NCBI GenBank assembly: GCA_003327455.1
Contig: QOQU01000001.1
Location: 258,337 to 322,336 of the forward strand
Reading direction: 5' to 3'
DNA: 64,000 bases
DNA from: Anaerolineae bacterium
GTDB taxonomy: Bacteria > Chloroflexota > Anaerolineae > Anaerolineales > UBA4823
The notes below the pieces were generated by a model that was given only the letters and a program-made list of their open reading frames with translations, ran no database searches and was not told the DNA's origin. Numbering within the stretch: position 1 is the first letter of the stretch; each line of letters begins with the position of its first letter. This document shows, piece by piece, positions 2 to 42,750 of the stretch. Both the position numbers and the translations under genes were made by a program.

Positions 2-3000
2 GTCCTGGTTTACGATGGCGCTATGGGAACCAATCTGCAGAAGATGAAATTGACCGCTGCACACTTCGGCGGAGAAAAAACGTTTGGCTGCAACGATTAT
101 CTTGTCCTCACTTATCCTGCCGCAGTCGAAGCAGTCCACCGCTCCTTCTTAGAAGTGGGGGTCGATGCGATTGAAACCAATACTTTTCGGTCAAACCGTA
201 TCACGCTGGGTGAATATGGGCTGGCAGAGCGAGTGATTGAAATCAACCGCGCCGCGGCTTCGCTGGCAAGAAGACTGGCGGATGAATACAGCACGGCTGG
301 GCAGCGCCGCTTTGTGGCTGGTTCGATTGGACCTTCGGGGAAATTGCCCTCCGCCGATGACCCCGATCTCTCGAATATCGATTTTGATGAATTGGTAGAT
401 GTTTTTCGCCAACAGGCAGTGGGCTTAATCGAAGGCGGCGTGGATGTCTTGCTGATCGAGACCTCGCAGGATATTTTAGAGGTCAAGGCAGCCATTCTGG
501 GCATTCACGAAGCCTTCCGAGAACTGGGTACACGATTACCCATCCAGGCTCAGGTCACGCTGGACACCAATGGTCGCATGCTGCTGGGCACAGACATTGG
601 GGCGGCGCTGGCGATCCTGGCCGGCATGCAGATTGATGTGATTGGTTTGAACTGCTCCACCGGGCCAGAACACATGCGCCAACCCATCGAATTTCTGGGG
701 AAACACGCGCCCTTGCCCGTGTCCTGTCTGCCCAATGCCGGTTTGCCCTTGAACGTGGACGGAGAAGCCGTTTACCCCCTCGAACCCCAACCCTTCGCGC
801 AGGAGATGCTTGGCTTTGTCGAACGAAATGGCATTCGGGTTGTCGGTGGTTGTTGTGGGACGACGCCTCAACATCTGCAACTGCTGGTGCAGGGTTTACG
901 CGAGAAAGGCTTTCTGGCGCCTCAGGCGCGGTTCTTTCAGGCAGCCACTTTCCCCCCTCATCTGGCTTCAGCGGTTCGGGCGGTTGAAATGCATCAGCAG
1001 CCGCCGCCGTTGCTGATCGGGGAGCGTTGTAACGCCCAGGGCTCACGCCAGTTCAAACGGCTCTTGCTGGAAGAAAATACCGATGCCATCCTCGACCTGG
1101 CTCGCCAGCAGGTAGAGGGCGGCGCACATGCGCTGGATATTTCGGTAGCTCTGACCGAGCGCGCTGATGAAGCCGATACGATGCGCAAAGTGGTCAAACT
1201 TCTGGCAACAGGCGTGGATGTGCCGCTGGTCATAGACACCACCGAACCAGAGGTCATGGAAGTAGCGCTGAAAACCGCTCCGGGCAGATGTTTGCTCAAT
1301 TCCACCCATCTCGAAGGCGGTGAAGCGAAAGCCCGGCGCGTTTTCCAACTGGCAAAAGACTTCAACGCGGCGGTGCTTTGCCTGACCATCGATGAACAGG
1401 GGATGGCAAAAACTGCCCAACGCAAAGTGGAGGTTGCTCGACGCCTCTATCATCTGGCAGTGGAGGAGATCGGTTTAGCCCCAGAGGCGCTGGTCTTTGA
1501 TGCGCTTACGTTTACCCTGGCTACCGGCGATGAGGAATACCGTTACTCAGCGATCGAGACTTTAGAGGGAATTCGTTTGATTAAAGAAAATCTACCCGGC
1601 GTGCTGACCTCCTTAGGTGTCAGCAACCTTTCCTTTGGCCTGGCAGCCAACGCCCGGCCGGTCTTGAACAGTGTGATGCTCTATCACGCGGTTCAGAAGG
1701 GATTGGATATGGCAATTGTCAATCCTGCCCACATCACGCCCTACGCCGAGATCCCTCTGAACGAGCGTGAGCTTGCCGAAGATTTGATCTTTGCCCGCCG
1801 CGAGGATGCCCTCAGCCGTTTGATTGAGTACTTTGCCCAGCAGGCACCAAATGCTCGAATGGGTGAAAAAGACCAGACAGCCGAATTGCTTGGCTCCATG
1901 ACGGCGCAGGAGCGCTTACACTGGAAGGTCGTTCATCGCCATAAAGAGGGGGTTGAAGCGGATATCGACGAAATGATTCAAAATGCCCTGTTGTCTTATC
2001 CCTCACCCCTAACCCCTCCCCCTAAGGGGGAGGGGAATACCCTCCCCCCCTCGCCCTTAGGGAGAGGGGCCGGGGGTGAGGGATTAGAAGGGGTTGAGGG
2101 TGACTTAAAGAAAATCCAACACCAGGCCGCCGTCCAGATCCTCAACCATGTCCTCCTGCCCGCCATGAAAGAAGTAGGAGACAAATTCGGCGCCGGTGAA
2201 CTCATCCTGCCCTTCGTCCTCCAATCCGCTGAAGTCATGAAAAAAGCCGTCAGCCACCTGGAAAACTATCTCGAAAAACAGGAAGGCACGACCAAAGGTA
2301 AGATTGTCCTTGCCACCGTTTACGGCGATGTGCACGACATCGGCAAAAATCTGGTTAAGACCATCCTCTCCAACAACGGCTACACCGTCATCGATTTGGG
2401 CAAACAAGTGCCGGCAGAAACGATCATCTCTACCGCCGTGGAGCAAAAGGCGGATGCCATTGGACTGAGCGCTTTGCTGGTCAGCACTTCCAAACAAATG
2501 CCCCTGATCGTCAACGAACTCCATCGGCGCAGTTTGAAATTCCCCGTCTTAATCGGCGGAGCTGCCATAAATCGGCGCTTTGGCTGGCGGATTTTGTTCA
2601 CCGAAGATCAGAGCGTGTACGAGCCGGGTGTGTTCTATTGCAAGGATGCTTTCGAAGGCCTGGCGGTTATGGACCAGCTCATGCAGCCTGAAAAACGACA
2701 GGCCTTGCTGGAAAAAGTCCGGCAAGACGCCCGGCGGGAGGTTGCCAGACCGCTCCAATCCGACTCAAGGCAAACAACCCAACGACGGTCTACCGTCCTT
2801 CCCAAGCCCTTGCAGCTTCCGCCAGGGGTGCGCTGGGGCAGCCGTGTGGTGCGAGAGATGCCCCTAAGAGCCGTCTTTCAATGCCTGTTCAAGAACGACC
2901 TGTTCCGCCTCTCCTGGGGCGCCAAAAACGCCCATGGGGAAGAATGGGAACGGCTGCACCGCGACTTTGAGCAGCGTCTCGACCTCATGCAACGCCAGGC

Positions 3001-3616
3001 TTTGCAACAGGGGTGGCTCCGCCCTCAAGCAGCTTATGGCTACTGGCCCTGTCAATCCGAAGAAGATGAGCTGATCCTCTACGATCCCGACACCCTGCGC
3101 GCTGAACCCGATGAGTGGGTGGAGTTGATGCGTTTTGCCTTTCCCCGGCAGGAGGACGATGAGCATCTCTGCCTGGCGGATTACTTTGCCAGCCGCGAGA
3201 GCGGTGTAATCGATGTGGTGGCTTTCCAGGTCGTCACCGTGGGGCATGAGGCCACGGAATATTTTGATCGCCTGCAAGCCGAGGGCAACTACACCGAAGC
3301 CTATTTTGTGCATGGGCTGGCGGTTCAAACCGCCGAAGCCGCAGCGGAGTATCTGCATCGCCATATCCGCCGTGAATTAGGCATCCCCGAAGGCCAGGGA
3401 AAGCGCTATTCCTGGGGGTATCCTGCCATTCCAGAATTGGAAGACCACCGCAAAGTGTTCGATCTCTTACCGGTGGAGAAGGAGTTTGGCATGAGCTTAA
3501 CCGCTGCCTTTCAACTCGTCCCGGAACAATCTACAGCGGCAATTATCGTCCATCATCCTCAGGCGAAATATTACGCAGTCGGCGGCAGCCGCGTTGAGCA
3601 GTTGATGAGAGGTTGA
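2..3616 (+). CDS. metH: Cobalamin-dependent methionine synthase, 5'-truncated by the window edge (frame is open from nt 2; the Met at 23 is internal, ..VLVYDGAMGT..)
   Basis: 1197-aa ORF with Hcy-binding (DGAMGT, GGCCGTTP), pterin-binding, B12 cap plus B12-binding (GDVHDIGKN..SALL..GGA) and C-terminal AdoMet-activation regions in canonical order. Confidence 0.95.
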   Translation, partial: VLVYDGAMGTNLQKMKLTAAHFGGEKTFGCNDYLVLTYPAAVEAVHRSFLEVGVDAIETNTFRSNRITLGEYGLAERVIEINRAAASLARRLADEYSTAGQRRFVAGSIGPSGKLPSADDPDLSNIDFDELVDVFRQQAVGLIEGGVDVLLIETSQDILEVKAAILGIHEAFRELGTRLPIQAQVTLDTNGRMLLGTDIGAALAILAGMQIDVIGLNCSTGPEHMRQPIEFLGKHAPLPVSCLPNAGLPLNVDGEAVYPLEPQPFAQEMLGFVERNGIRVVGGCCGTTPQHLQLLVQGLREKGFLAPQARFFQAATFPPHLASAVRAVEMHQQPPPLLIGERCNAQGSRQFKRLLLEENTDAILDLARQQVEGGAHALDISVALTERADEADTMRKVVKLLATGVDVPLVIDTTEPEVMEVALKTAPGRCLLNSTHLEGGEAKARRVFQLAKDFNAAVLCLTIDEQGMAKTAQRKVEVARRLYHLAVEEIGLAPEALVFDALTFTLATGDEEYRYSAIETLEGIRLIKENLPGVLTSLGVSNLSFGLAANARPVLNSVMLYHAVQKGLDMAIVNPAHITPYAEIPLNERELAEDLIFARREDALSRLIEYFAQQAPNARMGEKDQTAELLGSMTAQERLHWKVVHRHKEGVEADIDEMIQNALLSYPSPLTPPPKGEGNTLPPSPLGRGAGGEGLEGVEGDLKKIQHQAAVQILNHVLLPAMKEVGDKFGAGELILPFVLQSAEVMKKAVSHLENYLEKQEGTTKGKIVLATVYGDVHDIGKNLVKTILSNNGYTVIDLGKQVPAETIISTAVEQKADAIGLSALLVSTSKQMPLIVNELHRRSLKFPVLIGGAAINRRFGWRILFTEDQSVYEPGVFYCKDAFEGLAVMDQLMQPEKRQALLEKVRQDARREVARPLQSDSRQTTQRRSTVLPKPLQLPPGVRWGSRVVREMPLRAVFQCLFKNDLFRLSWGAKNAHGEEWERLHRDFEQRLDLMQRQALQQGWLRPQAAYGYWPCQSEEDELILYDPDTLRAEPDEWVELMRFAFPRQEDDEHLCLADYFASRESGVIDVVAFQVVTVGHEATEYFDRLQAEGNYTEAYFVHGLAVQTAEAAAEYLHRHIRRELGIPEGQGKRYSWGYPAIPELEDHRKVFDLLPVEKEFGMSLTAAFQLVPEQSTAAIIVHHPQAKYYAVGGSRVEQLMRG
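1998..2105. repeat. Copy of the dispersed G/C-rich nested-palindrome element lying in-frame inside metH
   Basis: atCCCTCACCCctaaCCCCTCCCCCtaaGGGGGAGGGG...CCCCCTCGCCCttaGGGAGAGGGGccGGGGGTGAGGG has the same architecture as the intergenic units at 6005-6322, 26432-26790, 50650-50850 and 60107-60581. It is translated as SPLTPPPKGEGNTLPPSPLGRGAGGEG. Confidence 0.8.
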
Positions 3617-3619
3617 ACC

Positions 3620-5506
3620 ATGAACTCCTCCCCGACCCTGAAAGACCTGCTGTTGAATGCCGGTGTACCCTTGCTTTCGGATGGAGCAATGGGCACGCAA
3701 CTTCATGCCCGCGGTATAACCTTCGACGAATGCTTTGATGGCTTGAACCTTACCAACCCCGATCTGGTTTTTCAGATTCACTGCGATTACCTCAAGGCCG
3801 GGAGCGATCTCCTTCAAACCAACACCTTCGGGGCAAACCGCTACAAACTTGCCTTGCATGGGTTAGAGAAGGACCTCAGGCGCATAAACCGACAGGGTGT
3901 TCAAATCGCCCGCCAGGCGGCCGGCTCAAGCTCCAGGAAAGTTTTTATTCTCGGCGATATCGGACCGCTGGGGGTTCGGCTGGCGCCTTATGGGCGTGTG
4001 CGACCAGAGCAGGCTCGCCAGGCTTTTCGTGAACAGATCGAAGCGCTGCTCGAAGCCGGGGTAGATGGTATCCTTTTGGAAACCTTTAGCGATCTCCTGG
4101 AGATCCGCGAAGCGATTGAGGCTGCCAAGGCCCTGAGCGACTTGCCGCTGATTGCTTCCATGACCTTTACCCGCGATGACGTGACCCTGTTAGGGGATAC
4201 GCCCGCTCAGGTGGCGCGACAATTGTACGAATACGGGGCAGATCTGATCGGGGTGAATTGTTCTGGCGGTCCAGCCCAGGTCTGGCGCATTCTACGCCAG
4301 ATGGGACAAACGCTGCTGGCGAGCAAGAAAACCTTACCGCCCTTCTCGGCGATGCCCAATGCCGGTTGGCCAGAGCAGGTGGGAGGACGGATCATGTACC
4401 CTGCCAACGCAGCCTATTTTGGCGAGTATGCGCTGGCTTTCTGCGAAGCCGGGGCGCGCCTGGTAGGCGGGTGTTGCGGCACGACCCCTGAGCATATCGC
4501 TGCCATGCGTGCAGCCTTAGATGGTCAAACGGGAGGATGTGCGCCCTCAGTCAGCGAACTCACCCTGCCAATCGAAATTGAGGACGCCAGAGGGGAAGTA
4601 GAAGCGCCCTCCCGCCTGGCGAAGAAACTGGCAGAAGGCAGGTTTGTGATCAGCGTGGAGATGGATCCACCGCGCGGCCTTTCCACCCATAAGCTATTAG
4701 CCGGAGCGAGCTTGCTCAGTGAAGCCGGAGCGGATGTGATTAACATCGCCGATAGCCCCATGGCGCGCATGCGCATGAGCCCCTGGGCGGTTTGTGAGCT
4801 GTTACAACGCACGTTTGACATCGAGACCACGTTGCATTTTCCGACCCGCGGACGTAATCTGCTGCGGGTACAGGGCGATTTGTTGGCTGCCCACGCCCTG
4901 GGCATCCGCAACGTCTTCGTTGTGATGGGCGACCCTACTGCCATTGGCGATTACCCCGACGCCATGGACAACTACGACCTTGTCCCCTCGGGCTTGATCA
5001 AGCTGATCAAACAAAATCTGAACGTTGGGCTCGACCAGGCGGGGGCAGAATTGGGACAGCCAACCCATTTTTTTGTCGGTTGCGCTTTGAATCTCACCCC
5101 AACGGACTTCGGTCAGGAGGCAAAAAACTTACGGCGCAAACTGGAGGCGGGAGCAGACTTTATTCTCACCCAACCCGTCTTTCAACCCCGGCGGGCTGAG
5201 GCTTTTTTACAATTTTATCAGGAGAAATATGGGGAATTGAAAACGCCGCTCTTAGCCGGCGTGTTGCCGCTCTACAGTATTCGGCATGCGCTTTTCCTGC
5301 ATAACGAAGTGCCGGGCATTCAAATCGAAGAGGAAACGCTGGAACGCATCCGCAAAGCAGGCGAAGACGCGCCAGAGGAAGGCATCCGCGTTGCGTTAGA
5401 ACTCATTGAGCAAATGCGCGGCTGGATCAGCGGCATTTACCTGATGCCCGCTTTTCACCGCTACGACATCGCATCGGAAATCATCGAAGCCTGTCGTAAA
5501 TCCTAG
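3620..5506 (+). CDS. yitJ: Bifunctional homocysteine S-methyltransferase / 5,10-methylenetetrahydrofolate reductase (YitJ-like fusion)
   Basis: N-terminal Hcy-binding domain (SDGAMGTQL, GGCCGTTPEHI) fused to an MTHFR-like C-terminal half (ISVEMDPPRG, HFPTRGRN). Start is 4 nt after the metH stop. Confidence 0.85.
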   Translation: MNSSPTLKDLLLNAGVPLLSDGAMGTQLHARGITFDECFDGLNLTNPDLVFQIHCDYLKAGSDLLQTNTFGANRYKLALHGLEKDLRRINRQGVQIARQAAGSSSRKVFILGDIGPLGVRLAPYGRVRPEQARQAFREQIEALLEAGVDGILLETFSDLLEIREAIEAAKALSDLPLIASMTFTRDDVTLLGDTPAQVARQLYEYGADLIGVNCSGGPAQVWRILRQMGQTLLASKKTLPPFSAMPNAGWPEQVGGRIMYPANAAYFGEYALAFCEAGARLVGGCCGTTPEHIAAMRAALDGQTGGCAPSVSELTLPIEIEDARGEVEAPSRLAKKLAEGRFVISVEMDPPRGLSTHKLLAGASLLSEAGADVINIADSPMARMRMSPWAVCELLQRTFDIETTLHFPTRGRNLLRVQGDLLAAHALGIRNVFVVMGDPTAIGDYPDAMDNYDLVPSGLIKLIKQNLNVGLDQAGAELGQPTHFFVGCALNLTPTDFGQEAKNLRRKLEAGADFILTQPVFQPRRAEAFLQFYQEKYGELKTPLLAGVLPLYSIRHALFLHNEVPGIQIEEETLERIRKAGEDAPEEGIRVALELIEQMRGWISGIYLMPAFHRYDIASEIIEACRKS

Positions 5507-5509
5507 CTC

Positions 5510-5788
5510 TTATCCCGGCGGTGGAAGCGGTTCGTCGCTGGATACGGGTTGCGGTTTCTTGCGCAGGGTGAAGAAGCCCACCGCAACCGGGACGACCATT
5601 AACAGCAGCCCAAGACAGAGGATGGGAATACCCGCCGAAGGGGGGATCTGCCCGCTTTGTTCGCCCAGCTCAAAGGTGCCTGCTCCAAAGGCAGAAGCCG
5701 CGCCAAAGATGCATAGAAAAATTCCCGGGCAGCCACAAAGAAAAACCGTGGCAATCGTAGCAATCAAACCAACCGTCTTTTTGTCCAT
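5510..5788 (-). CDS. Small integral membrane protein, unknown function (start moved to MDKKTVG, preceded by AGGAGG)
   Basis: Two hydrophobic helices (LIATIATVFLCGCPGIFLCIF; ILCLGLLLMVVPVAVGFF); RBS aggagg 6 nt upstream of the ATG at 5788. Confidence 0.55.
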   Translation of the reverse strand: MDKKTVGLIATIATVFLCGCPGIFLCIFGAASAFGAGTFELGEQSGQIPPSAGIPILCLGLLLMVVPVAVGFFTLRKKPQPVSSDEPLPPPG

Positions 5789-12068: not shown

Positions 12069-13772
12069 TCACGGCACGTAAACGGGCAAAGTCAACACCT
12101 GATAGCTTTCGCCAACGCGCCGGACGATAAAGTCAAACTGACTGAGCGGCGGAAAATCTTCGACTTCTTCTCCACAACAGGGACCTAGAACGAACAACGA
12201 CCCATCCGGGTTTTGCAGTTCGACCGTAAAACGGAACTCATCCGCCGAGATCTGCGCTGCCTGCACCCAGTTTTTCACCGTCAGGTTACAGACAAAGCCA
12301 TTCTGCTGACAGGCTCTTGTCCACAGGGTGAGCGAATCATCAGCCTTAACGTCCGGGTTCATCTCCATCAGCCATTGATAATCACCGCCGTAAAGGCTGA
12401 CCACCTGCGAATAATCCCCCTTGTTCAGGGCATCCAGATAGGCGATCAGGGTCTGTCTGGCTGCTTGGGTTGCGGCGGGGTCCTGCACCTGGCGAGCCTG
12501 GTCGGCAAGCTCTTGCACCAACTGCAGAATGCCCTCTTGTTCCTCCTGGCTGGCTGTTTGCTGCCCTATGCCATTGAAGACAAGCCGCAAGATCATGCCA
12601 TCGGCGGCGCCCGAATCACCCTGATTGATCTCAAACGGCAGGTAAGTATCCAGCCAGCGAAAGACCTCCTGCATTTGCGCGGCGGTAAGATATACCTTCT
12701 GGACGCCGAGTTGTTGCGCAGGACGGCAAGAACTGATTTCAACTCTGCCAGTTCGAGAAATCACCATGTCCTCACAAAACCCTGCCAGACCGCCCTCGCG
12801 GTGAAAGGCAAGCACGGCGGCGGGCTTCATTCCTGCTTGAGGGTCGTGCTCCATCCAGACCTGACGCGCCCATTCGGCAAGCATTCGCTGCTCGGCTGGC
12901 GTGGCGGTGACTGCACCACGCCCTTGAAAGCTAAGCCATCCGGCCGGCGTTTGTGCTTCAAACGGGGCATAGGTTTGGACGAATCTCTCGATTTCCTGGC
13001 GCACTTCTCGCCCGACCAGAGGAACTGAAATCAAAGGCTGGTCGCAGACGCCATAAGACAGGGCTTCTTCACCGAGAACGACGGTTTGACAAAGGCCTCC
13101 TTCGTCTCCCTGCCAGCGCAAGAGCGGCGCGCCGCCTTCCAGATTGGGTTGCAGGGCTAAGCGAACATCGCTGCCGCTCAGATCGGTATGGAATTCATAG
13201 CGCTTTCCCTGCGCTTCGAGCAGGACGCGAAACCCAGGGGTAATCACCTGAGCGCACATCAGCCCGGCGCTCTGGATGCCAAGACAGGCATCTGGCCACT
13301 CCACCTTTTCAACATTGAGAATGCGAACCTCTTCCGGCGAGATGCCCAGCCGGGCCGCCAGCACCTGTTGGGCAGAGAGAGCAGCACCTGGTAAGAATCG
13401 CACGATGGAGCCATCTTCGCTCACCCGAAATTCGTATTGCAGTCCCTCTCCCAGGAGAATACCCTGATAGCCCGGCACGATCAGCTCAGCACAGGCTTCG
13501 CCCTCTTGCTCTAACCCCAAACAGCTATTGGGGAACTGGCGCGCTTCTACCGAAAACACCTCCAGTTGTTCAACCGCCACACCAAGTTGTTGGGCTAAGG
13601 TTTGACGGGCAGCCTGTACAGCCGGAATTGAAACAGAGACCGTTGCCGACGGCGGTTGGGAGGGAGGTACTTCTCCCAGGTTGGGCGTCGGTGCAGCGCT
13701 GGGGGTACAGGCAACGGTGAAAGCGGTGAAAATCAGGACAATCATGAACCAAAAGGGACGCGGGCAATTCAT
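12069..13772 (-). CDS. Putative lipoprotein with two copies of a roughly 75-aa Cys-pair domain, unknown function (start moved to MNCPRPF)
   Basis: Signal/lipobox FTAFTVAC. Internal repeat ..FPNSCLGLEQEGEACAELIVPGYQ..YEFR / ..WPDACLGIQSAGLMCAQVITPGFR..YEFH. Confidence 0.6.
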   Translation of the reverse strand: MNCPRPFWFMIVLIFTAFTVACTPSAAPTPNLGEVPPSQPPSATVSVSIPAVQAARQTLAQQLGVAVEQLEVFSVEARQFPNSCLGLEQEGEACAELIVPGYQGILLGEGLQYEFRVSEDGSIVRFLPGAALSAQQVLAARLGISPEEVRILNVEKVEWPDACLGIQSAGLMCAQVITPGFRVLLEAQGKRYEFHTDLSGSDVRLALQPNLEGGAPLLRWQGDEGGLCQTVVLGEEALSYGVCDQPLISVPLVGREVRQEIERFVQTYAPFEAQTPAGWLSFQGRGAVTATPAEQRMLAEWARQVWMEHDPQAGMKPAAVLAFHREGGLAGFCEDMVISRTGRVEISSCRPAQQLGVQKVYLTAAQMQEVFRWLDTYLPFEINQGDSGAADGMILRLVFNGIGQQTASQEEQEGILQLVQELADQARQVQDPAATQAARQTLIAYLDALNKGDYSQVVSLYGGDYQWLMEMNPDVKADDSLTLWTRACQQNGFVCNLTVKNWVQAAQISADEFRFTVELQNPDGSLFVLGPCCGEEVEDFPPLSQFDFIVRRVGESYQVLTLPVYVP

Positions 13773-13973
13773 TTTCTGGCTCCTTCTGCTTTCGTTCGTA
13801 GTCTTTGGATCGAGCAACGTTGCTCTTCAAACAAAGGCTCTGGTTTGAAAACGCTTTTCGGAAGGCTTTTGTTCCGAATCCATAACCGGAGGGTAGGCGA
13901 CCTCCACCCCAATCATAACCGGTTTATGAACAATTGCCAAATTATCCGAACGATCTTTGATCCTGTATGGAAG

Positions 13974-14921
13974 TTAACTGCATTTGTCCCCAGACTCGCG
14001 GCAGACGCTGGATTTTTCGAATGCAGAGAGGCTTGCTCGCTGACGGAAGACATCGTAGTCATTGGCTTCGATCTTATCCAAAATGGCGCGATAGACATCC
14101 AGAGCCACCGCAATGGCAAAGCGCCCATCCGGGCTGAGCATACGGATGCCAGGCCAGGCTTCTGCGTACAGTTGGCGGGCGCGGTTAATTTGAAAACGCA
14201 TAAACTGCCGCCAACGCTCGGTGACCTGCCCGGCGAAAATGTGGCTCTCATCTAAGCCGAAAGAATCCAGTTCTTGCAGGGGGAGGTATATGCGCCCGTT
14301 GTGATAATCTTCCCCGACATCGCGCAAAATGTTGGTCAATTGCAGGGCAACCCCTAATTTGATGGCGTAGGGGATGGCGTCCTGACCCTGATAGCCGATG
14401 ATGTGCATGCTCATCAAGCCCACCGTAGAAGCCACCGAATAGCAGTAGGTTGCCAGTTGATCAAAGGTCTGATAGCGATGCTGTTCCATATCGCGAGCCA
14501 CACCATCGATTAACTGCAAGGCATAATGGCGCGGAATGTGATAGCGTTGTAAGGTGTCTCCCCAGGCGATAACCACCGGGTCATCTGTCTCGACGGAGGG
14601 ATGGGACACGATTTGGCGCCAGCTCTGCAGGGCGTGATGCGGATCGCAGCCATCTTTGCCCACATCAACAATATCGTCCACCGTGCGACAAAAGGCATAC
14701 AGGGCACGCACCGCCCGCCGCTTTGGCGCAGGTAAAAAGGCAGAGGCAAAATAAAAGGACTTGCTATAGCGAGCCGTGATGAGGGCAGCATGACGATAGG
14801 CTTGATGCAGTTGTTCGCTATTTTCCCCAGCCACAGCCGCAGCGGGAGGAGAAGCAGGATTGGCTTGAAAAGCCAGAGAGAGCAGTCGGTCTTCCCAGTT
14901 TGCTTCCATTATCCTTCCCAA
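13974..14921 (-). CDS. crtB: Phytoene synthase
   Basis: Squalene/phytoene synthase motifs YCYSVASTVGLMS and NILRDVGEDYHNGRIYLP; DDIVD Asp-rich motif. Confidence 0.9.
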   Translation of the reverse strand: MGRIMEANWEDRLLSLAFQANPASPPAAAVAGENSEQLHQAYRHAALITARYSKSFYFASAFLPAPKRRAVRALYAFCRTVDDIVDVGKDGCDPHHALQSWRQIVSHPSVETDDPVVIAWGDTLQRYHIPRHYALQLIDGVARDMEQHRYQTFDQLATYCYSVASTVGLMSMHIIGYQGQDAIPYAIKLGVALQLTNILRDVGEDYHNGRIYLPLQELDSFGLDESHIFAGQVTERWRQFMRFQINRARQLYAEAWPGIRMLSPDGRFAIAVALDVYRAILDKIEANDYDVFRQRASLSAFEKSSVCRESGDKCS

Positions 14922-14942
14922 AACCTTAGAGATATTACCTGT

Positions 14943-14970
14943 ATTCTACACAAATTATCTAATTTGTCAA
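14943..14970 (-). promoter_or_regulatory. crtB promoter (TTGACA-16-TAGAAT on the minus strand) containing a perfect palindrome ACAAATTA-tc-TAATTTGT (14950-14967)
   Basis: Read directly: -35 = 14965-14970, -10 = 14943-14948. The palindrome occupies the spacer and -35. Confidence 0.6.
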
Positions 14971-15000
14971 TAAAAAAACGGAAAAAATCTGGAAGAAATC

Positions 15001-15028
15001 TTGACAGTTTATAGATTTTGACTATAAT
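15001..15028 (+). promoter_or_regulatory. crtI-operon promoter (TTGACA-16-TATAAT) with a degenerate copy of the crtB-promoter palindrome in the spacer (15004-15021, ACAgtTTATagAtTTTGa)
   Basis: Read directly; 12/18 positions are identical to the 14950-14967 site. Confidence 0.55.
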
Positions 15029-15154
15029 AAGAATGGCTGGGACGTCGTGAGCATCGTTGCATCCCATCCTGCTACCCAAAAGCCATCTCGCCCCAAGACG
15101 TCCCACGCCAGATTTCTCTTTCGAGAACCCGACCGGTATGTTATAAGGAGTATT

Positions 15155-16690
15155 ATGAAGCCTACAGTATTGATCATTGGCGCAGGCATCGGTGGCATTG
15201 CAGCAGCAGCTCGCCTGGCAAAAAACGGTTTCCAGGTTACCGTAGTAGAAAAAAATGACCAGCCAGGCGGTCGGTGTGGGCAATTCAGCCGCGATGGGCA
15301 TCGCTTTGACATTGGCCCAACCCTTTTCCTGATGCCGGAAGTCTGGGATGAGACGTTTACTGCCCTCGGTGAGCGCATGAGCGATCACCTCGATTTGCGC
15401 CGCATCGATCCGACCTACAAAGTCCACTTTGAAGATGGCTTGCAGATAGCCCTCACTTCCAATCTGGGGGCGATGCAGACCCAATTAGAACGCGTCGAGA
15501 AGACCGCCTTTACCGGCTTCCTGCACTATATTGCTGAAGGCAGCAAACACTATAAAATTTCACTGGAGAGGTTTGTCGGGCGCAATTTCTACAGCCTGCT
15601 GGAGTATTTTTCACCGGCAAATCTCCCTCTGCTCTTTCAACTCAAGGCACTGGTCAAGCATTATGATAATGTCGGCAAATACTTCACCGACCCGCGTCTC
15701 AAAGCAGCCTTTACCTTTCAGAATATGTACCTGGGTTTGAGCCCCTATGATGCCCCGGCAACCTATTCCCTGCTGCAATACACCGAACTTGCCGAAGGGG
15801 TCTGGTATCCTATCGGTGGTATGTACGCCCCGATTCAGGCGCTGACCGCCATCGCAGAGAAACTGGGGGTACAGTTTGTCTATCATGCCGAAGTAACCCG
15901 CATCGAAACCTCCAATGGAAAGGTAGAGCGGGTTCACCTCAAAGATGGACGTACATTGCAGGCTGATATCTATATCGGTAACGCCGACTTGCCATATATT
16001 TATAAAGAACTCTTGCCCGATCCAGACGCGGCGCGCAGGTTCGATAAGATGCTCTACACCTGCTCGACCATCATGTTTTACTGGGGCGTGGATAAAGCCT
16101 ATCCGCAAATCGCCTTACACAACGTTTTCCTGAGCGGCGACTATAAGGCATCCTTCGATCGCATTTTCAAGGATCACACCCTGCCGGATACCCCTTCGTT
16201 CTACGTTCACGCGCCAACGCGAGTTGACCCTGCGGCTGCCCCGCCTGGTCAGGAAACGCTTTTTATCCTCGTGCCGGTTGGTCATCTCGATGAAAGTCGT
16301 CCGCAAGATTGGGAAGCGATGGTAAACCATGCTCGCCAAACCGTTTTCAACCGCCTTGCCAGAGAGATGAACGCCGCCGATTTGCCCGAACACATCAAAT
16401 TTGAAGTGGTGTACACAGCCCAGGACTGGAAGCAACGCTTCAATCTCGATAAGGGAGCAGCCTTCGGTCTCAGCCATAACTTCTGGCAGGTTGGCTATTT
16501 GCGACCCCAAAACCGGCATCGCCGTTATCGCAACCTGTACTTTGTCGGCGCTTCCACGCATCCGGGCACCGGCTTACCCATCGTCTTGCTCTCTGCCCGT
16601 CTGACTACGGAACGCATTCTGCGTGAGTGCAGCTTCTTATTCCAGACGAGGACAGACTCACAACCCCTTCAAACAGCGGTACCTTCATGA
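15155..16690 (+). CDS. crtI: Phytoene desaturase (start moved to MKPTVLIIGAG after AAGGAG)
   Basis: FAD fingerprint VLIIGAGIGGIAAAARLA; CrtI-family length; C-terminal FVGASTHPGTGLP motif. Confidence 0.9.
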   Translation: MKPTVLIIGAGIGGIAAAARLAKNGFQVTVVEKNDQPGGRCGQFSRDGHRFDIGPTLFLMPEVWDETFTALGERMSDHLDLRRIDPTYKVHFEDGLQIALTSNLGAMQTQLERVEKTAFTGFLHYIAEGSKHYKISLERFVGRNFYSLLEYFSPANLPLLFQLKALVKHYDNVGKYFTDPRLKAAFTFQNMYLGLSPYDAPATYSLLQYTELAEGVWYPIGGMYAPIQALTAIAEKLGVQFVYHAEVTRIETSNGKVERVHLKDGRTLQADIYIGNADLPYIYKELLPDPDAARRFDKMLYTCSTIMFYWGVDKAYPQIALHNVFLSGDYKASFDRIFKDHTLPDTPSFYVHAPTRVDPAAAPPGQETLFILVPVGHLDESRPQDWEAMVNHARQTVFNRLAREMNAADLPEHIKFEVVYTAQDWKQRFNLDKGAAFGLSHNFWQVGYLRPQNRHRRYRNLYFVGASTHPGTGLPIVLLSARLTTERILRECSFLFQTRTDSQPLQTAVPS

Positions 16691-17994
16691 CACCATTAAG
16701 CACAACTCCGGCGTTTAATCTCAAGGTAGTTCTCAAAGAAACCGGCATCCGCCCGGATACCCTGCGGGCATGGGAACGTCGGTATGGTTTACCCAAACCG
16801 CAGCGCTCAGCGGGAGGGCATCGTCTCTATTCTGAGCGCGACATCGAGACGATCAAGTGGTTGATGGCGCGCCAGGAGGAAGGGCTTTCCATCGCTCGCG
16901 CGGTTGACCTCTTGCGCAGTCAGATCGCCCAGGGGAACGACCCCCTCGAACACATCGAACCACCTCCATTGCAGCCCATAGCCACACCGGGTACGCTGGA
17001 AAGCATCCGTCAGGACTGGGTAGAAGCCTGCCTGGCTTTCGACGAAAAGCGGGCAGAAGGATTGCTCAATCAGGCTTTTGCTCTTTTCCCGCTCGAAACG
17101 GTCGTAACCGAGATACTCCAATATGCCATGATCCAGGTGGGGGAGCAGTGGTACCAAAACGACATTTCCGTCCAGCAGGAACATTTTGCCTCGGCGCTTG
17201 TCCAGCGGCGCTTAAATGCACTGATTGCTGCCTGTCCCCCGCCCACTCGCCCGGAAGTGATCTTAGTCGGCAATCCGCCCAGCGAGCAACATCTGATTCC
17301 GATCTTGATGTTGAATCTGTTTTTGCGTCGGCGCGGTTTTGGCGTCGTGGATATCGGCGCCAATGTGCCGGTTGCCAAATTTGATGAGACGGTGGAGCGG
17401 ATTAAGCCCCATCTGGTCGTTCTCAGCGCCCAACGTTTGAGCACGGTTGCTCCGATGATCGAGGTGATCCTCTCTCTGCATCCCCTGAAGACCCAGATTG
17501 CCTATGGAGGGCGCATTTTTAACCTTTTACCCCAATTGGTCGACCTGATACCGGCGCATTACCTGGGCAAGAGCCTGGATGAAGCAGTGCGCAACATCGA
17601 ACGCCTGCTCAGCCAGCGACCGCCTCTGCCACTTCCTTCAGCTAAGTTGCAAACGTACCAGCAGACAGCAGAGGTTTTTCGCCATCTCCGCCCACAAATC
17701 GAAGCGAAACTGTTTGAAGAGTTGAGCCCATACAACCTGCCCGAGGAATACCTCACCACTGCCATTGAAGACTTTGGCGATGTGCTTCACTCGGCTCTGG
17801 CAATTGGTGATCTGGATGCCATTCATCCAGAACTGGAGTGGCTGCGCGGCTTGCTTCATCAACATCATCTCCCCGACGGCATTCTCGCCCCGTTCTTAAT
17901 GGCATACGCACAGGCGGTGCGTTCGATGGAGGTAGCCCAACTGACGCCCCTGGTGGAGTGGTTAAAAACAACCGCTGAAAGAGTTGTGGCATAG
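16687..17994 (+). CDS. MerR-family regulator with a B12-binding domain (CarH/LitR-like) and an extra C-terminal region of about 120 aa
   Basis: MerR HTH (LKETGIRPDTLRAWERRYGLPKPQRSAGGHRLYSERDI); B12-binding fold (ILVGNPPSEQHLIPILMLNLFLRRRGFGVVDIG..VVLSAQRL..YGGRIF). The ATG overlaps the crtI stop (ATGA). Confidence 0.8.
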   Translation: MTPLSTTPAFNLKVVLKETGIRPDTLRAWERRYGLPKPQRSAGGHRLYSERDIETIKWLMARQEEGLSIARAVDLLRSQIAQGNDPLEHIEPPPLQPIATPGTLESIRQDWVEACLAFDEKRAEGLLNQAFALFPLETVVTEILQYAMIQVGEQWYQNDISVQQEHFASALVQRRLNALIAACPPPTRPEVILVGNPPSEQHLIPILMLNLFLRRRGFGVVDIGANVPVAKFDETVERIKPHLVVLSAQRLSTVAPMIEVILSLHPLKTQIAYGGRIFNLLPQLVDLIPAHYLGKSLDEAVRNIERLLSQRPPLPLPSAKLQTYQQTAEVFRHLRPQIEAKLFEELSPYNLPEEYLTTAIEDFGDVLHSALAIGDLDAIHPELEWLRGLLHQHHLPDGILAPFLMAYAQAVRSMEVAQLTPLVEWLKTTAERVVA

Positions 17995-18029
17995 GTCAGC
18001 CTGAGATTGTCTTCCAGAACGGGTAGCAC

Positions 18030-19424
18030 ATGCCGACGATTTGGTGGATTCGCCGTGACTTAAGACTGACCGACAACGGCGCGCTGCATGCTGCCCTTCA
18101 AGAGGGAGAAGTCATCCCATTATTTATTCTTGATCCACATTTGCTCGCCCATTCTGCCCCCAAACGGCTTAATTTCCTCTTTGGCGGCTTGCAGGCTCTG
18201 GATGAAAGCCTGCGCCAGCGCGGCGCGGCGCTGATCCTGCGCCGCGGTGAGCCCCTGACCGTCTTGCGCCAGATGCTGGCAGAGAGCGGCGCTGTGCACG
18301 TTTATGCCGAAGAAGACTACACGCCCTATGCGCGCCGCCGCGATGAAAAAATCCGGGCTGAAATTCCGCTGCATCTCATCGCCTGGCAAACCGTTCATCA
18401 TCCGGCAAGGGTGCGAAAGCCGGATGGAAAGCCTTACACCGTTTACACTCCCTACGCCAAAGCCTGGAAAGCAAACCTGGTTGATCTCAAACTCCTGCCA
18501 GCCCCTGAACGGATCATCCTGCCGCCCGGTCTCTCCAGTGAACCCTTGCCGCCTTTTCAACCCGAGGCACACTTTCCGCCCTCGGAACAGGAAGCGCAGT
18601 TGCGCCTTGAAGAGTTCACCCGTTCAGCCTCCGTTCCCTCTCTGCGCAGGGGATGGGGTGGCATCTTTACCTATGCCGAACAGCGCAACCGCATGGATCT
18701 GGACGGCACTTCCCAGCTTTCGCCCTATTTACGCTTTGGCATGCTTGGAATGCGGCAGGCGGTCTTTGCAGCCGTGCAAGCCATGCGCACTTCGCCACCC
18801 GGAATGAGCAAATCGGCTGAAACGTGGTTGAACGAATTGATCTGGCGCGAGTTCTACATTCAAATCCTGTATCATTTCCCTTACGTTCGGCGAGAGGCAT
18901 TCAACCGGGCTTTTGCGAACCTGCCCTGGCAGAACGATGAAGCCGCTTTTCAGAGTTGGAAAGAGGGATTGACCGGAATGCCGATCGTGGATGCCGCAAT
19001 GCGCCAGTTGCGCCAGATGGGCTGGATGCACAATCGCGCCCGCATGATTGTGGCTTCCTATCTGGTTAAGGACATGTTGATCGACTGGCGCTGGGGAGAA
19101 GCATGGTTTATGGAGAACCTGATCGATGGTGATCTGGCTGCCAACAACGGCGGCTGGCAATGGACAGCCGGCACCGGCACCGACGCTGCACCCTATTTTC
19201 GCATCTTCAATCCCGTTTTACAAAGTCGAAAATTTGATCCCTACGGAGCTTATATCCGCCGCTGGGTGCCCGAACTGCGCCACCTGGATGACGATGCCAT
19301 TCATGCACCGTGGCTCAAAGGGGTTCGGGTTGCCGGTTACCCCTCGCAGCCGGTTGTTTTACCCGATAAAGCCCGCACTTTAGCCGTCTATCGTTCAGGG
19401 CGAACTGGTCAACAGCGAAGCTGA
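18030..19424 (+). CDS. phr: Deoxyribodipyrimidine photolyase
   Basis: IWWIRRDLRLTDN N-terminus; FAD-binding C-terminal half (WREFY, GWMHNRARM, DGDLAANNGGWQW). Confidence 0.9.
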   Translation: MPTIWWIRRDLRLTDNGALHAALQEGEVIPLFILDPHLLAHSAPKRLNFLFGGLQALDESLRQRGAALILRRGEPLTVLRQMLAESGAVHVYAEEDYTPYARRRDEKIRAEIPLHLIAWQTVHHPARVRKPDGKPYTVYTPYAKAWKANLVDLKLLPAPERIILPPGLSSEPLPPFQPEAHFPPSEQEAQLRLEEFTRSASVPSLRRGWGGIFTYAEQRNRMDLDGTSQLSPYLRFGMLGMRQAVFAAVQAMRTSPPGMSKSAETWLNELIWREFYIQILYHFPYVRREAFNRAFANLPWQNDEAAFQSWKEGLTGMPIVDAAMRQLRQMGWMHNRARMIVASYLVKDMLIDWRWGEAWFMENLIDGDLAANNGGWQWTAGTGTDAAPYFRIFNPVLQSRKFDPYGAYIRRWVPELRHLDDDAIHAPWLKGVRVAGYPSQPVVLPDKARTLAVYRSGRTGQQRS

Positions 19425-20051
19425 AAACTCGCTCAAACTGCGCGCCAGCACATCCAAATCGGACTGGGCGGCGTAGGTATCCTTTTCCAAACCGCTCAGG
19501 GCTAAGTTGAGGCGGGTTTCCATTTCGACCAGAGCCGTACGCTGGCTGGGGCTGGCGCTGGTTTGCAACGCCTTGAAGATCGCTTGAGCGTTTTGCATTG
19601 CCTTCCTGGCAAGCTCCGCGTTGTTTTCATACAGGTAGATGCGCGCAGAGGCGATTTCCATTTGCAGGATAAGCACGTTATTCTGGAAATCGGCGCTCTT
19701 TAACTTTTCGAGAGATTCCTGATAGCGCTTTTCGATCTGGGCTTTTTCAGCCAGTTGCCCCTCTAAGGCTTCGATGCGACTCTGAGCGGCGCTCAATTCC
19801 GCTGCGCGAGCGTCTGCCTGGCGGCGCAGGGGCATGTAAAGCAGGAGCAAGGCAGCCACAAAGCCGATACCCAACAGGATTAAGACGCCCAGTGTCCAGC
19901 GCACCAGTTGACGCAGAAAGCGGCGCAGGCGGCTTTCTGCTTTGGGCGGTTGAGCGGGCAGCGCTGGCGGAATGGGTGTTTCAACGGACGGCTGTTCGGT
20001 TGGCTCTTCGAGCGAGCTTTCTAATTTTTCTTCGGCGTCATTTTCATTCAT
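19395..20051 (-). CDS. Membrane-anchored coiled-coil protein, unknown function (start moved to MNENDAE after AGGAAGGAG)
   Basis: One TM helix (WTLGVLILLGIGFVAALLLLY) followed by a heptad-rich region. The 3' end overlaps the phr 3' end by 30 nt (convergent). Confidence 0.55.
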   Translation of the reverse strand: MNENDAEEKLESSLEEPTEQPSVETPIPPALPAQPPKAESRLRRFLRQLVRWTLGVLILLGIGFVAALLLLYMPLRRQADARAAELSAAQSRIEALEGQLAEKAQIEKRYQESLEKLKSADFQNNVLILQMEIASARIYLYENNAELARKAMQNAQAIFKALQTSASPSQRTALVEMETRLNLALSGLEKDTYAAQSDLDVLARSLSEFSASLLTSSP

Positions 20052-20136
20052 TTGCCTTTCTCCTTCCTGCAGAAACAATTCAAGATTGATCGTAACAGCC
20101 TGTTCTGTGGCTTTTTTCGACTTTTTCGGCAGGCTT

Positions 20137-20976
20137 TCATTCGCGCTCTTTCGCTCGCGGGCGAGGCAATGGGTACGGCAGAGGGATATATTCAACTGTC
20201 GGACGCCCCATCCCGGCTTGCGGGTACATGTTCATCAATTGATAGACTTCTTTGGGGACATCCGTGGAGATGGGCAACCCCAAACCCCGCGCTTCTTCAA
20301 CGGTGATCGGGTAATCGTGCGTCCAGCGTCCGCTGGAGAGGACTTCGGCAAGCGTTTCTGCCTGTTCGGGGGTGGTATGACTCATCAGGATTTCGCGTAA
20401 GGTATCTTTGACCTGCCGCATCGCCTTGCGGGCAACATCGGCTAAGATCAACGTTTCATCGTTGATCTTTTCGAGTGGCTTTTGCTCTAAGACGGCAAGG
20501 ATAGAGGCGGCCGGTTGTTGACCGATTTGCGGATCGACCGGCCCAAGCACGGCATTCTCGTCCATCACGATTTCGTCGGCAGCCAGGGCGATCATGGTGC
20601 CGCCCGACATGGCATAGTGCGGCACAAAGACGGTCACTTTAGCGGGATGGCGACAAAGGGCTTTGGCGATCTGCTCGGCAGCCAGTACCAATCCGCCAGG
20701 CGTGTGCAGGATGATGTCAATGGGTACATTCGGATCGGTTAGCTTGATCGCCCGTAAAATCTCTTCCGAGTCATTGATGTCAATATAACGGGCAAGTGGA
20801 AAACCCAGGAAGGACAGGCGTTCCTGGCGGTGAATCAGGGCAATGGCGCGTGAGTTGCGTTTGACTTCCAACTGGCGTAACATGCGCGTCCGACTGGCTT
20901 CCAGCATGCGCTGACGGATCACCGGCTGTAAGGAGGAAATGACCAGGAAGAGAAAGAATAAAATTGTAAAGTCCAT
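20137..20976 (-). CDS. Membrane-anchored Clp-fold serine protease (SDH_sah / DUF114-like)
   Basis: N-terminal TM, then IALIHRQE..IDIILHTPGGLVLAAEQIA..YAMSGGTMIALAADEI pattern. Confidence 0.6.
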   Translation of the reverse strand: MDFTILFFLFLVISSLQPVIRQRMLEASRTRMLRQLEVKRNSRAIALIHRQERLSFLGFPLARYIDINDSEEILRAIKLTDPNVPIDIILHTPGGLVLAAEQIAKALCRHPAKVTVFVPHYAMSGGTMIALAADEIVMDENAVLGPVDPQIGQQPAASILAVLEQKPLEKINDETLILADVARKAMRQVKDTLREILMSHTTPEQAETLAEVLSSGRWTHDYPITVEEARGLGLPISTDVPKEVYQLMNMYPQAGMGRPTVEYIPLPYPLPRPRAKERE

Positions 20977-41595: not shown

Positions 41596-42750
41596 CTAGC
41601 CCGGAGGGGCAGGAAGCGGCGGCGGAGGTGGGAAAAGCCAGGCAAGCAACCTCCCCAAAGACCAGACCAGTGGAGGAAACCAGCCCTGCCCTGCCAGCCG
41701 ATAACAGACCTCGGCAGTGAACCAGCGTGTCATCAGATAACGTCCCAAATAGGATTTTCTCAACCGCCTGCGATAAGTGGAGAATGAGAAATCCTGACGT
41801 TCGAAGGCATCGATGATCGCCTGCGCCGCCAGTTGTCCATACGCCAGCGAGGGGGCAATGCCTTCGCCAAACAGGGGATCGACTCCAGCAACCTCGCCCA
41901 CCAGCAGCAGGCGCGGGTACGCAAAGCGATTGCGCGGACTAAACCAATGGATGGGGTGACTCTGCCATGCATCTCGCAGAGAGCCATACGCCTGAGAAAA
42001 CGCAGTTTCAAGAAACACCGGTAAGGGCGCAGGTGGCTTGCGCTGGTCCAGACGGGCATCGTAGAGACCACGGTTGAAGGCGGCTGTGCCGTTTTGGAAA
42101 AAGGGAAAATCCCATACGTAGCCCTGCAACCCCTCTTTGAGTAAACTGAAATCAAACAGGGTGGCGGCGCTCTGAAAGAGTTCTGCCGATGGACGAGCGG
42201 GTTGGACGACCTCCAGGGTGCGGGCAAGGCGGGCTTTGGCAGTACGGCGGCGCGTCCAGCGGCGGGTAATTCCGTTGGCACCGTCCGCTCCCACCACCAC
42301 TGTAGCAGAATATTCTCTCTCTGGAGTGCGTAAGACCACCGTCTCGGGCAGAAAGATGATCTCTTTCACCTCCTTACCCTCTTCAATTTGGATTCCTCTG
42401 GCTCTGGTTTGTTGTGCAAGATAGGCATCCAGCTCTGCGCGGTTAAAAATCACCAGTTGGGGTTCTCCACATAGGGTGACCACCTGGCGCTGATACCTGA
42501 ACCGAACTTCTTTGACGGCAAATTGGGGTAAGGGCAAGGGGTAAGGAAAATCCAGTTCCTGTAAGATGCGAAATCCCAGGCGGGTCACCGCGCCGCCGCA
42601 TAATTTGAAGCGCGGATAACACTCTTTTTCCAGCACCAGCACTCGTTTGCTCCACTGCGGCGAATAGCGCAGCAAATGTAAGGCGGTCGAAAGCCCACCT
42701 GGTCCGCCGCCGATAATGATCACATCATAATGCGCCTGGGCGCTCATCAT
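41596..42750 (-). CDS. FAD-dependent oxidoreductase, geranylgeranyl-reductase-like
   Basis: YDVIIIGGGPGGLSTA dinucleotide fingerprint, GADGANG motif, length about 380 aa. Confidence 0.6.
   Translation of the reverse strand: MMSAQAHYDVIIIGGGPGGLSTALHLLRYSPQWSKRVLVLEKECYPRFKLCGGAVTRLGFRILQELDFPYPLPLPQFAVKEVRFRYQRQVVTLCGEPQLVIFNRAELDAYLAQQTRARGIQIEEGKEVKEIIFLPETVVLRTPEREYSATVVVGADGANGITRRWTRRRTAKARLARTLEVVQPARPSAELFQSAATLFDFSLLKEGLQGYVWDFPFFQNGTAAFNRGLYDARLDQRKPPAPLPVFLETAFSQAYGSLRDAWQSHPIHWFSPRNRFAYPRLLLVGEVAGVDPLFGEGIAPSLAYGQLAAQAIIDAFERQDFSFSTYRRRLRKSYLGRYLMTRWFTAEVCYRLAGQGWFPPLVWSLGRLLAWLFPPPPPLPAPPG

Follow-up and report, generated by a model that had tools for sequence, protein, structure and literature searches.

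A compact locus on contig QOQU01000001.1 of an Anaerolineae bacterium raises the question of what kind of protein controls its genes, and through which sites in the DNA. The locus lies within a stretch of 64,000 nucleotides (nt), referred to here as the window, and contains a phytoene-synthase-family gene (crtB) and, on the opposite strand, a phytoene desaturase family gene (crtI), a regulator gene and a photolyase gene (phr). A first reading made without database searches (the sequence-only reading) had proposed that a CarH/LitR-type photoreceptor repressor acts on a palindromic site shared by two divergent promoters, forming a minimal 'sunscreen plus repair' regulon. Gene layout and synteny support the predicted CarH/LitR-type, probably light-derepressed unit with built-in autoregulation. 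We consider it likely that the locus is a light-derepressed photoprotection unit, in which both promoters are repressed in the dark by a CarH-like, photoglobin-bearing regulator on 11-bp repeats. The carotenoid and photolyase cluster is thus probably switched on by light via a B12 photoreceptor repressor. What appears to be new, as judged from the sequence comparisons, is a photoglobin-bearing regulator tied to a conserved regulon and a predicted operator across the Anaerolineales.

The open reading frame (ORF) map and domain scans bore out the divergent arrangement of crtB and crtI. The overlap taken to couple crtI translationally to the regulator gene is also real, the ATG of the regulator overlapping the crtI stop codon (ATGA at 16687-16690). 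The phr gene begins 35 nt past the regulator stop, as had been described, and no terminator-like site was listed in this gap; both features make co-regulation of phr plausible. The crtB-crtI intergenic region measures 245 bp, a slightly larger control region than the 230 bp given earlier.

The regulator family is very large, consisting of ~430-amino-acid (aa) proteins from metagenome-assembled genomes of Anaerolineales/Chloroflexota, with thousands of members in Anaerolineales. A genome scan with the regulator returned 80 loci. The crtI gene is located directly upstream of the regulator gene in 57 of the 67 informative loci; in 49 of 50, crtB and crtI are divergent. The phr gene lies immediately 3' of the regulator gene in 8 of the 66 scanned loci and no more than 7 kb away, in the same orientation, in 33 of the 66; in the window's own clade, it adjoins the regulator gene in 8 of the 11 relatives with recovered downstream DNA.

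Architecture of the regulator

The regulator carries an N-terminal MerR-type winged helix-turn-helix (HTH) domain, the recognition helix and wing of which are near-identical to those of TtCarH (LRxWERRYGxPKPxRxxGGHRLYS). This domain is followed by an adenosylcobalamin (AdoCbl)-type light-sensing module that aligns to the TtCarH cobalamin-binding domain. The four-helix bundle of the module contains the signature W155-x9-E165-H166 as well as G152xxW155, and the Rossmann domain contains E200-x-H202 and G224xxxP228; W155, E165, H166 and H202 are invariant in all 84 family members (84/84). The best sequence matches in the PDB were TtCarH entries 3WHP and 5C8D (E ~1e-30, i.e. 3e-30; 1e-37 with the family profile), and these searches also matched photocobilins, over a longer span than TtCarH. 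The AlphaFold2 (AF2) model of the regulator has a pLDDT of 91.6, and Foldseek aligned it to full-length TtCarH with an E-value of ~1e-16, the aligned part being the N-terminus plus the cobalamin-binding domain.

The protein continues past the Rossmann domain into five helices (residues 319-349, 353-373, 376-392, 397-412 and 417-434 of the AF2 model). In the Foldseek comparison with the photocobilin structures 8J2Y, 8J2W and 8J2X, the match spans both the B12 domain pair and this C-terminal globin-like domain (341 columns, E ~1e-16, target-normalised TM 0.81-0.83, root-mean-square deviation 3.5-3.7 Å). No Pfam family matched residues 319-434, and the C-terminal 187 aa, run on their own against the PDB as a single sequence, retrieved nothing; the link to photoglobins surfaced only via the family profile and the predicted fold. 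Photocobilins bind biliverdin in the photoglobin domain, whereby their B12 photochemistry comes to include red light; the bilin-pocket residues include Asp270 and Trp296 in SasPcob and Trp289 in AbPcob (PMC10979010). In a profile alignment to 8J2Y, the invariant W385 of the regulator aligns to AbPcob Trp289. D362 aligns to the AbPcob His position that corresponds to SasPcob Asp270, by profile alignment and manual index mapping only; this residue is Asp in 12/12 window-clade proteins and Q, F, S or H in the sister clade. The sequence-only reading had named a CarH/LitR-type regulator. The MerR HTH domain and the AdoCbl signature agree with that assignment, but the photoglobin-like domain had been overlooked and the protein is not a standard CarH; on sequence and model comparison, it is filed here as a CarH-like MerR-HTH protein of the photocobilin type, not as a plain CarH.

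That the regulator responds to redox state or to the supply of a cofactor (B12 or bilin) instead of light, or acts as a MerR-style activator, is improbable. Although B12-binding domains also have non-photic roles, a B12-dependent methionine synthase is encoded in the window, and GxxH, one of the four published light-signature motifs, reads SxxH in the window protein, the invariant Wx9EH signature and His ligand are published discriminators of light-responsive cobalamin domains, and the targets, i.e. the carotenoid pathway and photolyase, are both light-related. MerR-type activation needs over-long spacers of 19-20 bp, and the classical activator layout, with a dyad in such a spacer, was not found here, as the spacers are 16 bp long in the window and in nearly all of the orthologous regions and the dyad is not conserved. 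Short spacers together with consensus hexamers suit repression and make MerR-style activation unlikely.

Conserved sequences of the divergent promoters

In total, 52 orthologous crtB-crtI intergenic regions, 46 of them from the sister clade, were anchored on their -35 hexamers. Both promoters of the window are near-consensus, as the sequence-only reading had stated (scores in Table 1), and near-consensus promoters are present in both directions in all 52 regions. The spacer is 16 bp nearly throughout (17 bp in two or three regions per direction), and positions 1, 12 and 23, taken up by the -35 hexamer, the spacer repeat and the -10 hexamer, respectively, therefore share one 11-bp register. The crtI promoter of the 46 sister-clade loci reads (A)ACC-TTGACA-AAT(A/T)nTAGACAAnnnG-TATAAT. 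A second TnnACA occurs 11 bp after its -35 hexamer, namely TAGACA in 24 loci, TTGACA in 5, TGGACA in 3 and TCGACA in 2, and at least 35 of the 46 loci contain TTGACA-N5-T(A/T/G/C)GACA at this promoter. The sister-clade crtB promoter reads TTTGCAAAACC-TTGACA-AAnnnGACAAAAcCTG-TAcAAT, with TnnRCA at -11, TTGACA at 0, a GACA within the spacer and TGTA directly next to the -10 hexamer; the repeats on this side, at offsets -11, 0, +9 and +20, form two pairs and not one regular array. CarH operators consist of tandem 11-bp nnnnTnnACAn repeats, the -35 hexamer being contained in one of them, and degenerate pseudo-repeats are tolerated (PMC9304148). This design is clearly present in the 46 sister-clade loci, and the conservation points to CarH-type repeats 11 bp apart over the -35 hexamer and spacer of both promoters.

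The strict form of the repeat pair, TTGACA-N5-TnKACA, had 50 matches in 922 kb of related DNA (both strands), 41 of which lie upstream of crtI. Of the remaining nine, five precede the regulator gene by ~100 nt (L012, L019, L065, L070 and L075); among these loci, L065, L070 and L075 lack crtI, and the sites in L012 and L019 are at the crtI 3' end. The rest are the crtB promoter of L074, a site ~150 nt upstream of a crtI paralogue in L073, and matches in L059 and L070 at 11907. This locus specificity is the strongest evidence that the repeat-pair motif is the (predicted) operator of the regulator.

The window's own clade was compared in an alignment of 12 sequences with regulator identities of 71-99%. 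Eight of its loci (L086-L091, L093 and L094) were added via exact-protein look-ups; a metagenome-contig scan with a single protein query had yielded five distant loci only and no close relatives. At the crtI promoter of the 12 relatives, units with a TnGA core recur four to five times, with the G and A positions invariant every 11 bp. Only the -35 hexamers of the window are canonical TnnACA, the neighbouring in-register units being degenerate and invariant among close relatives. On the crtB side, TATTnTACA, T14955, TC14958-9 and TTGTCA are invariant in all 12 sequences; on the crtB sense strand, the invariant sequence is TTGACAAnnnnGAnnAnnnnTGTAnAAT, which corresponds to G, A and A of the sister-clade spacer GACAA. 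A strict nAnnTnnACAn register was also tried for the crtB-side spacer of the window and rejected, as it fits neither strand.

The operator-like sequence described earlier between the -35 and -10 hexamers of both promoters is conserved in the relatives; its supposed symmetry is not. The palindrome ACAAATTAtcTAATTTGT (14950-14967) is exact and occurs only once in the window, where the number of matches with <=3 mismatches expected by chance is 0.12. Its putative second copy at 15004-15021, which falls inside the proposed PcrtI operator, agrees at 11 of 16 specified positions and is no better than chance, since shuffling the 51-nt promoter region gives an equally good match somewhere in 13% of cases (P ~0.13); promoter-anchored identity between the two spacers is 9/16 (P ~0.06). 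When the window was searched for the palindrome (<=3 mismatches) or for clade-specific operator patterns elsewhere, only the sites themselves came up, and a wider regulon is accordingly not visible, at the level of sequence, within the 64 kb. The palindrome is perfect in only 2 of the 12 close orthologues (the window and L094), has one mismatch in L001 and L090 and two in L093, and is degenerate in the remaining sequences, so that the conservation in orthologous intergenic regions, which the sequence-only reading had listed as a check, was not found.

The two sites could nevertheless be read as an 18-bp inverted repeat and a degenerate copy serving as operators of symmetric MerR-type dimers. 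We think this unlikely. It is in keeping with the exactness and position of the palindrome, with the recurrence of its outer arms (ACAAAT/ATTTGT) in the window, L001, L004, L090 and L094, and with the dyads classically bound by MerR-family proteins, but the left arm varies freely in the clade (ACGAATAG, ACGATTCG and ATGATTTG), whereas the non-symmetric positions are invariant. In addition, the dyad is absent from the corresponding position in the sister clade, where clear direct repeats are found, and characterised CarH proteins bind direct repeats (PMC9304148). Footprinting of the aligned regions favours 11-bp-periodic direct repeats over an inverted repeat as the shared operator. Both sites thus lie on conserved operator-like sequence, and the palindrome as such does not appear to be the conserved control element: its dyad symmetry would be a lineage-specific by-product, because GACA has changed to GATA in the window, L001, L094 and L090 (L093 carries the same change). 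The least likely reading is that the conserved sequences are intrinsic promoter features (UP elements or spacer shape) or sites of another factor, with the regulator acting mainly elsewhere; block 14979-15000 is indeed A-rich and located at -38 to -59, where UP elements sit, but the repeat-pair motif is almost exclusive to crtI, regulator and crt-paralogue promoters across the 80 loci, matches the CarH half-site and periodicity, and has, in its window-clade form, no other copy in the 64 kb.

The two clades also differ in the DNA-binding domain. R22-P23 at the start of the recognition helix (16750-16755) is present in 12/12 window-clade regulators, and Ala-Ala occupies this position in 63-68 of 72 sister-clade proteins; the same clade split separates TAGATT (15012-15017) from TAGACA in the spacer repeat. 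These sequence differences may reflect co-variation of the DNA-binding domain and its operator.

The crtI leader is ~120 nt long in the window clade and contains a stem (GGCUGGGACGUC / GACGUCCCAnGCC) at the 5' end of the predicted transcript. In the alignment, 91.6% of cells are paired, compared with 31-43% in slid controls, and 7 of 13 pairs show compensatory changes among 11 relatives, compared with 1.5 in shuffles, none of which reached 7 (0/500). The only Rfam match to the intergenic region and crtI leader was at chance level (E = 9.7). Most sister-clade loci, with shorter leaders, lack the stem. The stem could serve to stabilise the mRNA or as the binding site of a factor.

Proposed mechanism and neighbouring features

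In the proposed mechanism, back-to-back sigma-70-type promoters would serve crtB on one side and the crtI-regulator-photolyase operon on the other. In darkness, the regulator with bound AdoCbl would assemble into head-to-tail dimers or a dimer of dimers, and its winged-helix domains would contact the tandem 11-bp repeats that coincide with the -35 hexamer and 16-bp spacer of each promoter, thereby excluding RNA polymerase. Light would break the Co-C bond, upon which the oligomer would dissociate and both promoters would fire. Because the regulator gene lies inside the operon and is translationally coupled to crtI, autoregulation would be expected, and with it a reset of the system. The C-terminal photoglobin-type domain would pack on the B12 domain, as in photocobilins. 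The repeat pairs of the sister clade (two repeats at PcrtI and two plus two at PcrtB) would suit dimeric units, an idea that resembles the dimeric Cystobacter CarH and the dark-state dimers of photocobilins.

Several observations weigh against this proposal. The units flanking the -35 hexamers of the window are degenerate (TAGATT, TGGAAG and GATA), and regulator binding would therefore have to tolerate pseudo-repeats, as documented for some CarH proteins (PMC9304148), and the A-rich block mentioned above could be an UP element and not an operator. The regulator scores 152 bits, far under the cut-off of 400, with the NCBIfam CarH equivalog NF052513, and over residues 14-293 only, because of which it was not filed as a CarH orthologue; the SxxH variant of the light motif in the window protein is a further point against the proposal. 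As to the bilin, the putative equivalence of D362 with the binding Asp is one of profile alignment only, this Asp is absent from the sister clade, and no heme oxygenase was seen in a Pfam scan of the 20 larger window ORFs outside the locus.

A further-reaching version of the light-derepression proposal is put forward tentatively, as possible but doubtful. In this version, the regulator would be a natural transcription-factor photocobilin, i.e. a dual-chromophore repressor with AdoCbl and biliverdin, acting as a red/far-red plus ultraviolet-to-green light switch on carotenoid synthesis and photorepair. D362 would have been retained as the bilin-binding Asp, the R22-P23 domain would have co-evolved with the diverged TnGA operator, and the crtI leader stem would provide a second, post-transcriptional layer of control.

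The coordinates of the features are listed in Table 1. The top NCBIfam model for crtB is 15-cis-phytoene synthase CrtB, with a score under the equivalog cut-offs, and crtI scored 489 bits with crtI_fam (TIGR02734; cut-off 238). The crtI frame opens with ATG 15155, preceded by AAGGAG, and both elements are kept in 11 of 12 relatives (CAGGAG in L086); GTG 15047 was ruled out as an alternative start, the stretch upstream of 15155 aligning with non-triplet indels. The 3' end of phr overlaps a convergent ORF (19395-20195, 266 aa) by 30 nt (19395-19424), as it does in L086, L089, L093 and L094, and this ORF has no Pfam or NCBIfam match. The same is true of a 582-aa ORF downstream of crtB (12069-13817, minus strand), within which a module of ~70 aa with paired cysteines occurs in duplicate (PNSCLGL…GEACAELIVPGYQ / PDACLGI…GLMCAQVITPGFR). 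The window also encodes MetH (the B12-dependent methionine synthase), indicating that the organism uses cobalamin, and a geranylgeranyl-reductase-family protein, the gene for which is 22 kb away from the crt genes (23-3616 and 41596-42750, respectively).

Table 1. Positions of genes, protein domains, promoters and other elements of the locus, in window coordinates
Feature	Position	Strand	Description
crtB, phytoene-synthase-family gene	13974-14909	minus	311 aa; ATG 14909 behind GGAAGGA; Pfam SQS_PSY, E 1e-83
PcrtB promoter	14970-14943	minus	-35 TTGACA 14970-14965, 16-nt spacer, -10 TAGAAT 14948-14943; 11/12 in promoter scan
8+2+8 palindrome	14950-14967	unstranded	ACAAATTA-tc-TAATTTGT; exact; first site of the sequence-only reading
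Proposed PcrtI operator	14979-15028	plus	CGGAAA 14979, TGGAAG 14990, TTGACA 15001 (-35), TAGATT 15012, TATAAT 15023 (-10)
PcrtI promoter	15001-15028	plus	-35 TTGACA 15001-15006, 16-nt spacer, -10 TATAAT 15023-15028; 12/12 in promoter scan
5'-untranslated-region stem of the predicted crtI transcript	15036-15046 paired to 15097-15108	plus	loop ~50 nt; RNAalifold on 6 and 11 sequences
crtI, phytoene desaturase family gene	15155-16690	plus	511 aa; NCBIfam TIGR02734 crtI_fam; Pfam Amino_oxidase
Regulator gene	16687-17994	plus	435 aa; MerR winged HTH, B12 four-helix bundle, Rossmann B12 and photoglobin-like domains
MerR-type winged-helix domain	16720-16929	plus	residues 12-81; Pfam MerR_1 and MerR
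AdoCbl-type light-sensing module	16996-17616	plus	four-helix bundle, residues 104-181; Rossmann domain, residues 191-310
Five-helix photoglobin-like domain	17641-17988	plus	residues 319-434; AF2 model and Foldseek
phr, class-I-type cyclobutane pyrimidine dimer photolyase	18030-19424	plus	464 aa; Pfam DNA_photolyase and FAD_binding_7; NCBIfam photolyase models

In the sister clade, several genes are found between the regulator gene and phr, encoding a major facilitator superfamily (MFS) transporter, DUF1295, DUF4345, DUF1475 and DUF3159 proteins, a DICT-domain protein and an unknown 223-aa protein (mapped at L018 1600-2981, L074 3340-5400 and L047 8375-10602). Judged by gene content, the arrangement resembles an enlarged photoprotection operon. 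The regulator gene and phr of L088 are parted by 770 nt of inserted DNA (4850-5620) with many short repeats (tgtcgca / ctgtcat), and in this one locus phr has its own promoter (TTGACAAAcagCACAA...TATACA at ~5533-5561), which resembles the crtB-type operator.

Comparison with known light-responsive systems

Photoregulation of carotenogenesis by B12 is textbook knowledge in Myxococcus, Thermus, Streptomyces and Bacillus, and a plain CarH reading of the locus would add a phylum and not a principle. The conserved regulon comprises crtB, crtI, the regulator gene itself and often phr together with DUF1295 and MFS genes. With such a regulon and a recognisable operator, the natural output of a photocobilin becomes directly testable. 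The system would offer a compact light-controlled repressor/operator pair, possibly red-responsive, for optogenetics, and it suggests that many 'non-phototrophic' Anaerolineae sense light. We know of no physiological target of photocobilins, the MerR-fused form being, to our knowledge, only listed in a domain survey. In the literature, no link of MerR proteins of the photoglobin/photocobilin type to carotenoid genes or to Anaerolineae was found. The MerR-HTH, B12 and photoglobin architecture appears in the 2022 photoglobin survey, which does not mention genes for carotenoids or photolyase and, by its own statement, lists no locus that had been studied experimentally (PMC8717448).

The locus resembles the class I CarH/LitR systems (TtCarH/LitR, Bacillus megaterium CarH/LitR and Myxococcus xanthus CarH) in the MerR winged HTH domain with its near-identical recognition helix and wing, in the four-helix bundle with Wx9EH and the Rossmann domain with a His lower ligand, in having carotenoid genes under (here predicted) control from 11-bp tandem repeats that include the -35 hexamer, and in the location of the regulator gene in or beside the regulated unit. 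Sorangiineae, too, possess a crtI-carH pair accompanied by a divergent crt gene (PMC9304148). Unlike class I proteins, the regulator adds a C-terminal photoglobin-like domain of 125 aa, its architecture continuing past the Rossmann domain, and the repeats of the window clade are degenerate, with TnGA instead of TnnACA.

A LitR-family regulator links photolyase to other photoprotective genes in two further systems, as it is predicted to do here. In Thermus, LitR controls LdrP, which activates crt genes and phrB (PMC5401885), and in Pseudomonas, class II LitR controls phrB, ufaM, folE and other genes (PMC9758184). The 'sunscreen plus repair' regulon is supported as regards the co-operonic phr and autoregulation, but co-regulation of this kind was already known from both of these genera. 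DUF1295-type genes accompany the sister-clade operons, a further point of resemblance. The photolyase gene of the present locus is directly in the operon, whereas Thermus reaches phrB via the second regulator, LdrP. Class II LitR has no Rossmann B12 domain and requires a LOV partner, whereas control in the present locus is predicted to be direct and co-operonic.

Photocobilins, in which coupled B12 and bilin photochemistry was shown in 2024, are represented by SasPcob and AbDPcob (8J2W/8J2X/8J2Y; PMC10979010). The regulator shares with them the order of domains, in which a five-helix globin-like domain comes after the B12 pair and sits on the corrin edge (TM 0.82), the CarH-like Wx9EH/ExH signature and, by the profile alignment, the conserved pocket Trp; the key Asp is found here in the window clade only, and by alignment only. 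The photocobilins characterised so far either stand alone or are fused to diguanylate cyclases, and none is a transcription factor with known targets, whereas the present protein would have a DNA-binding output, with a regulon and an operator that can be predicted from the genomes.

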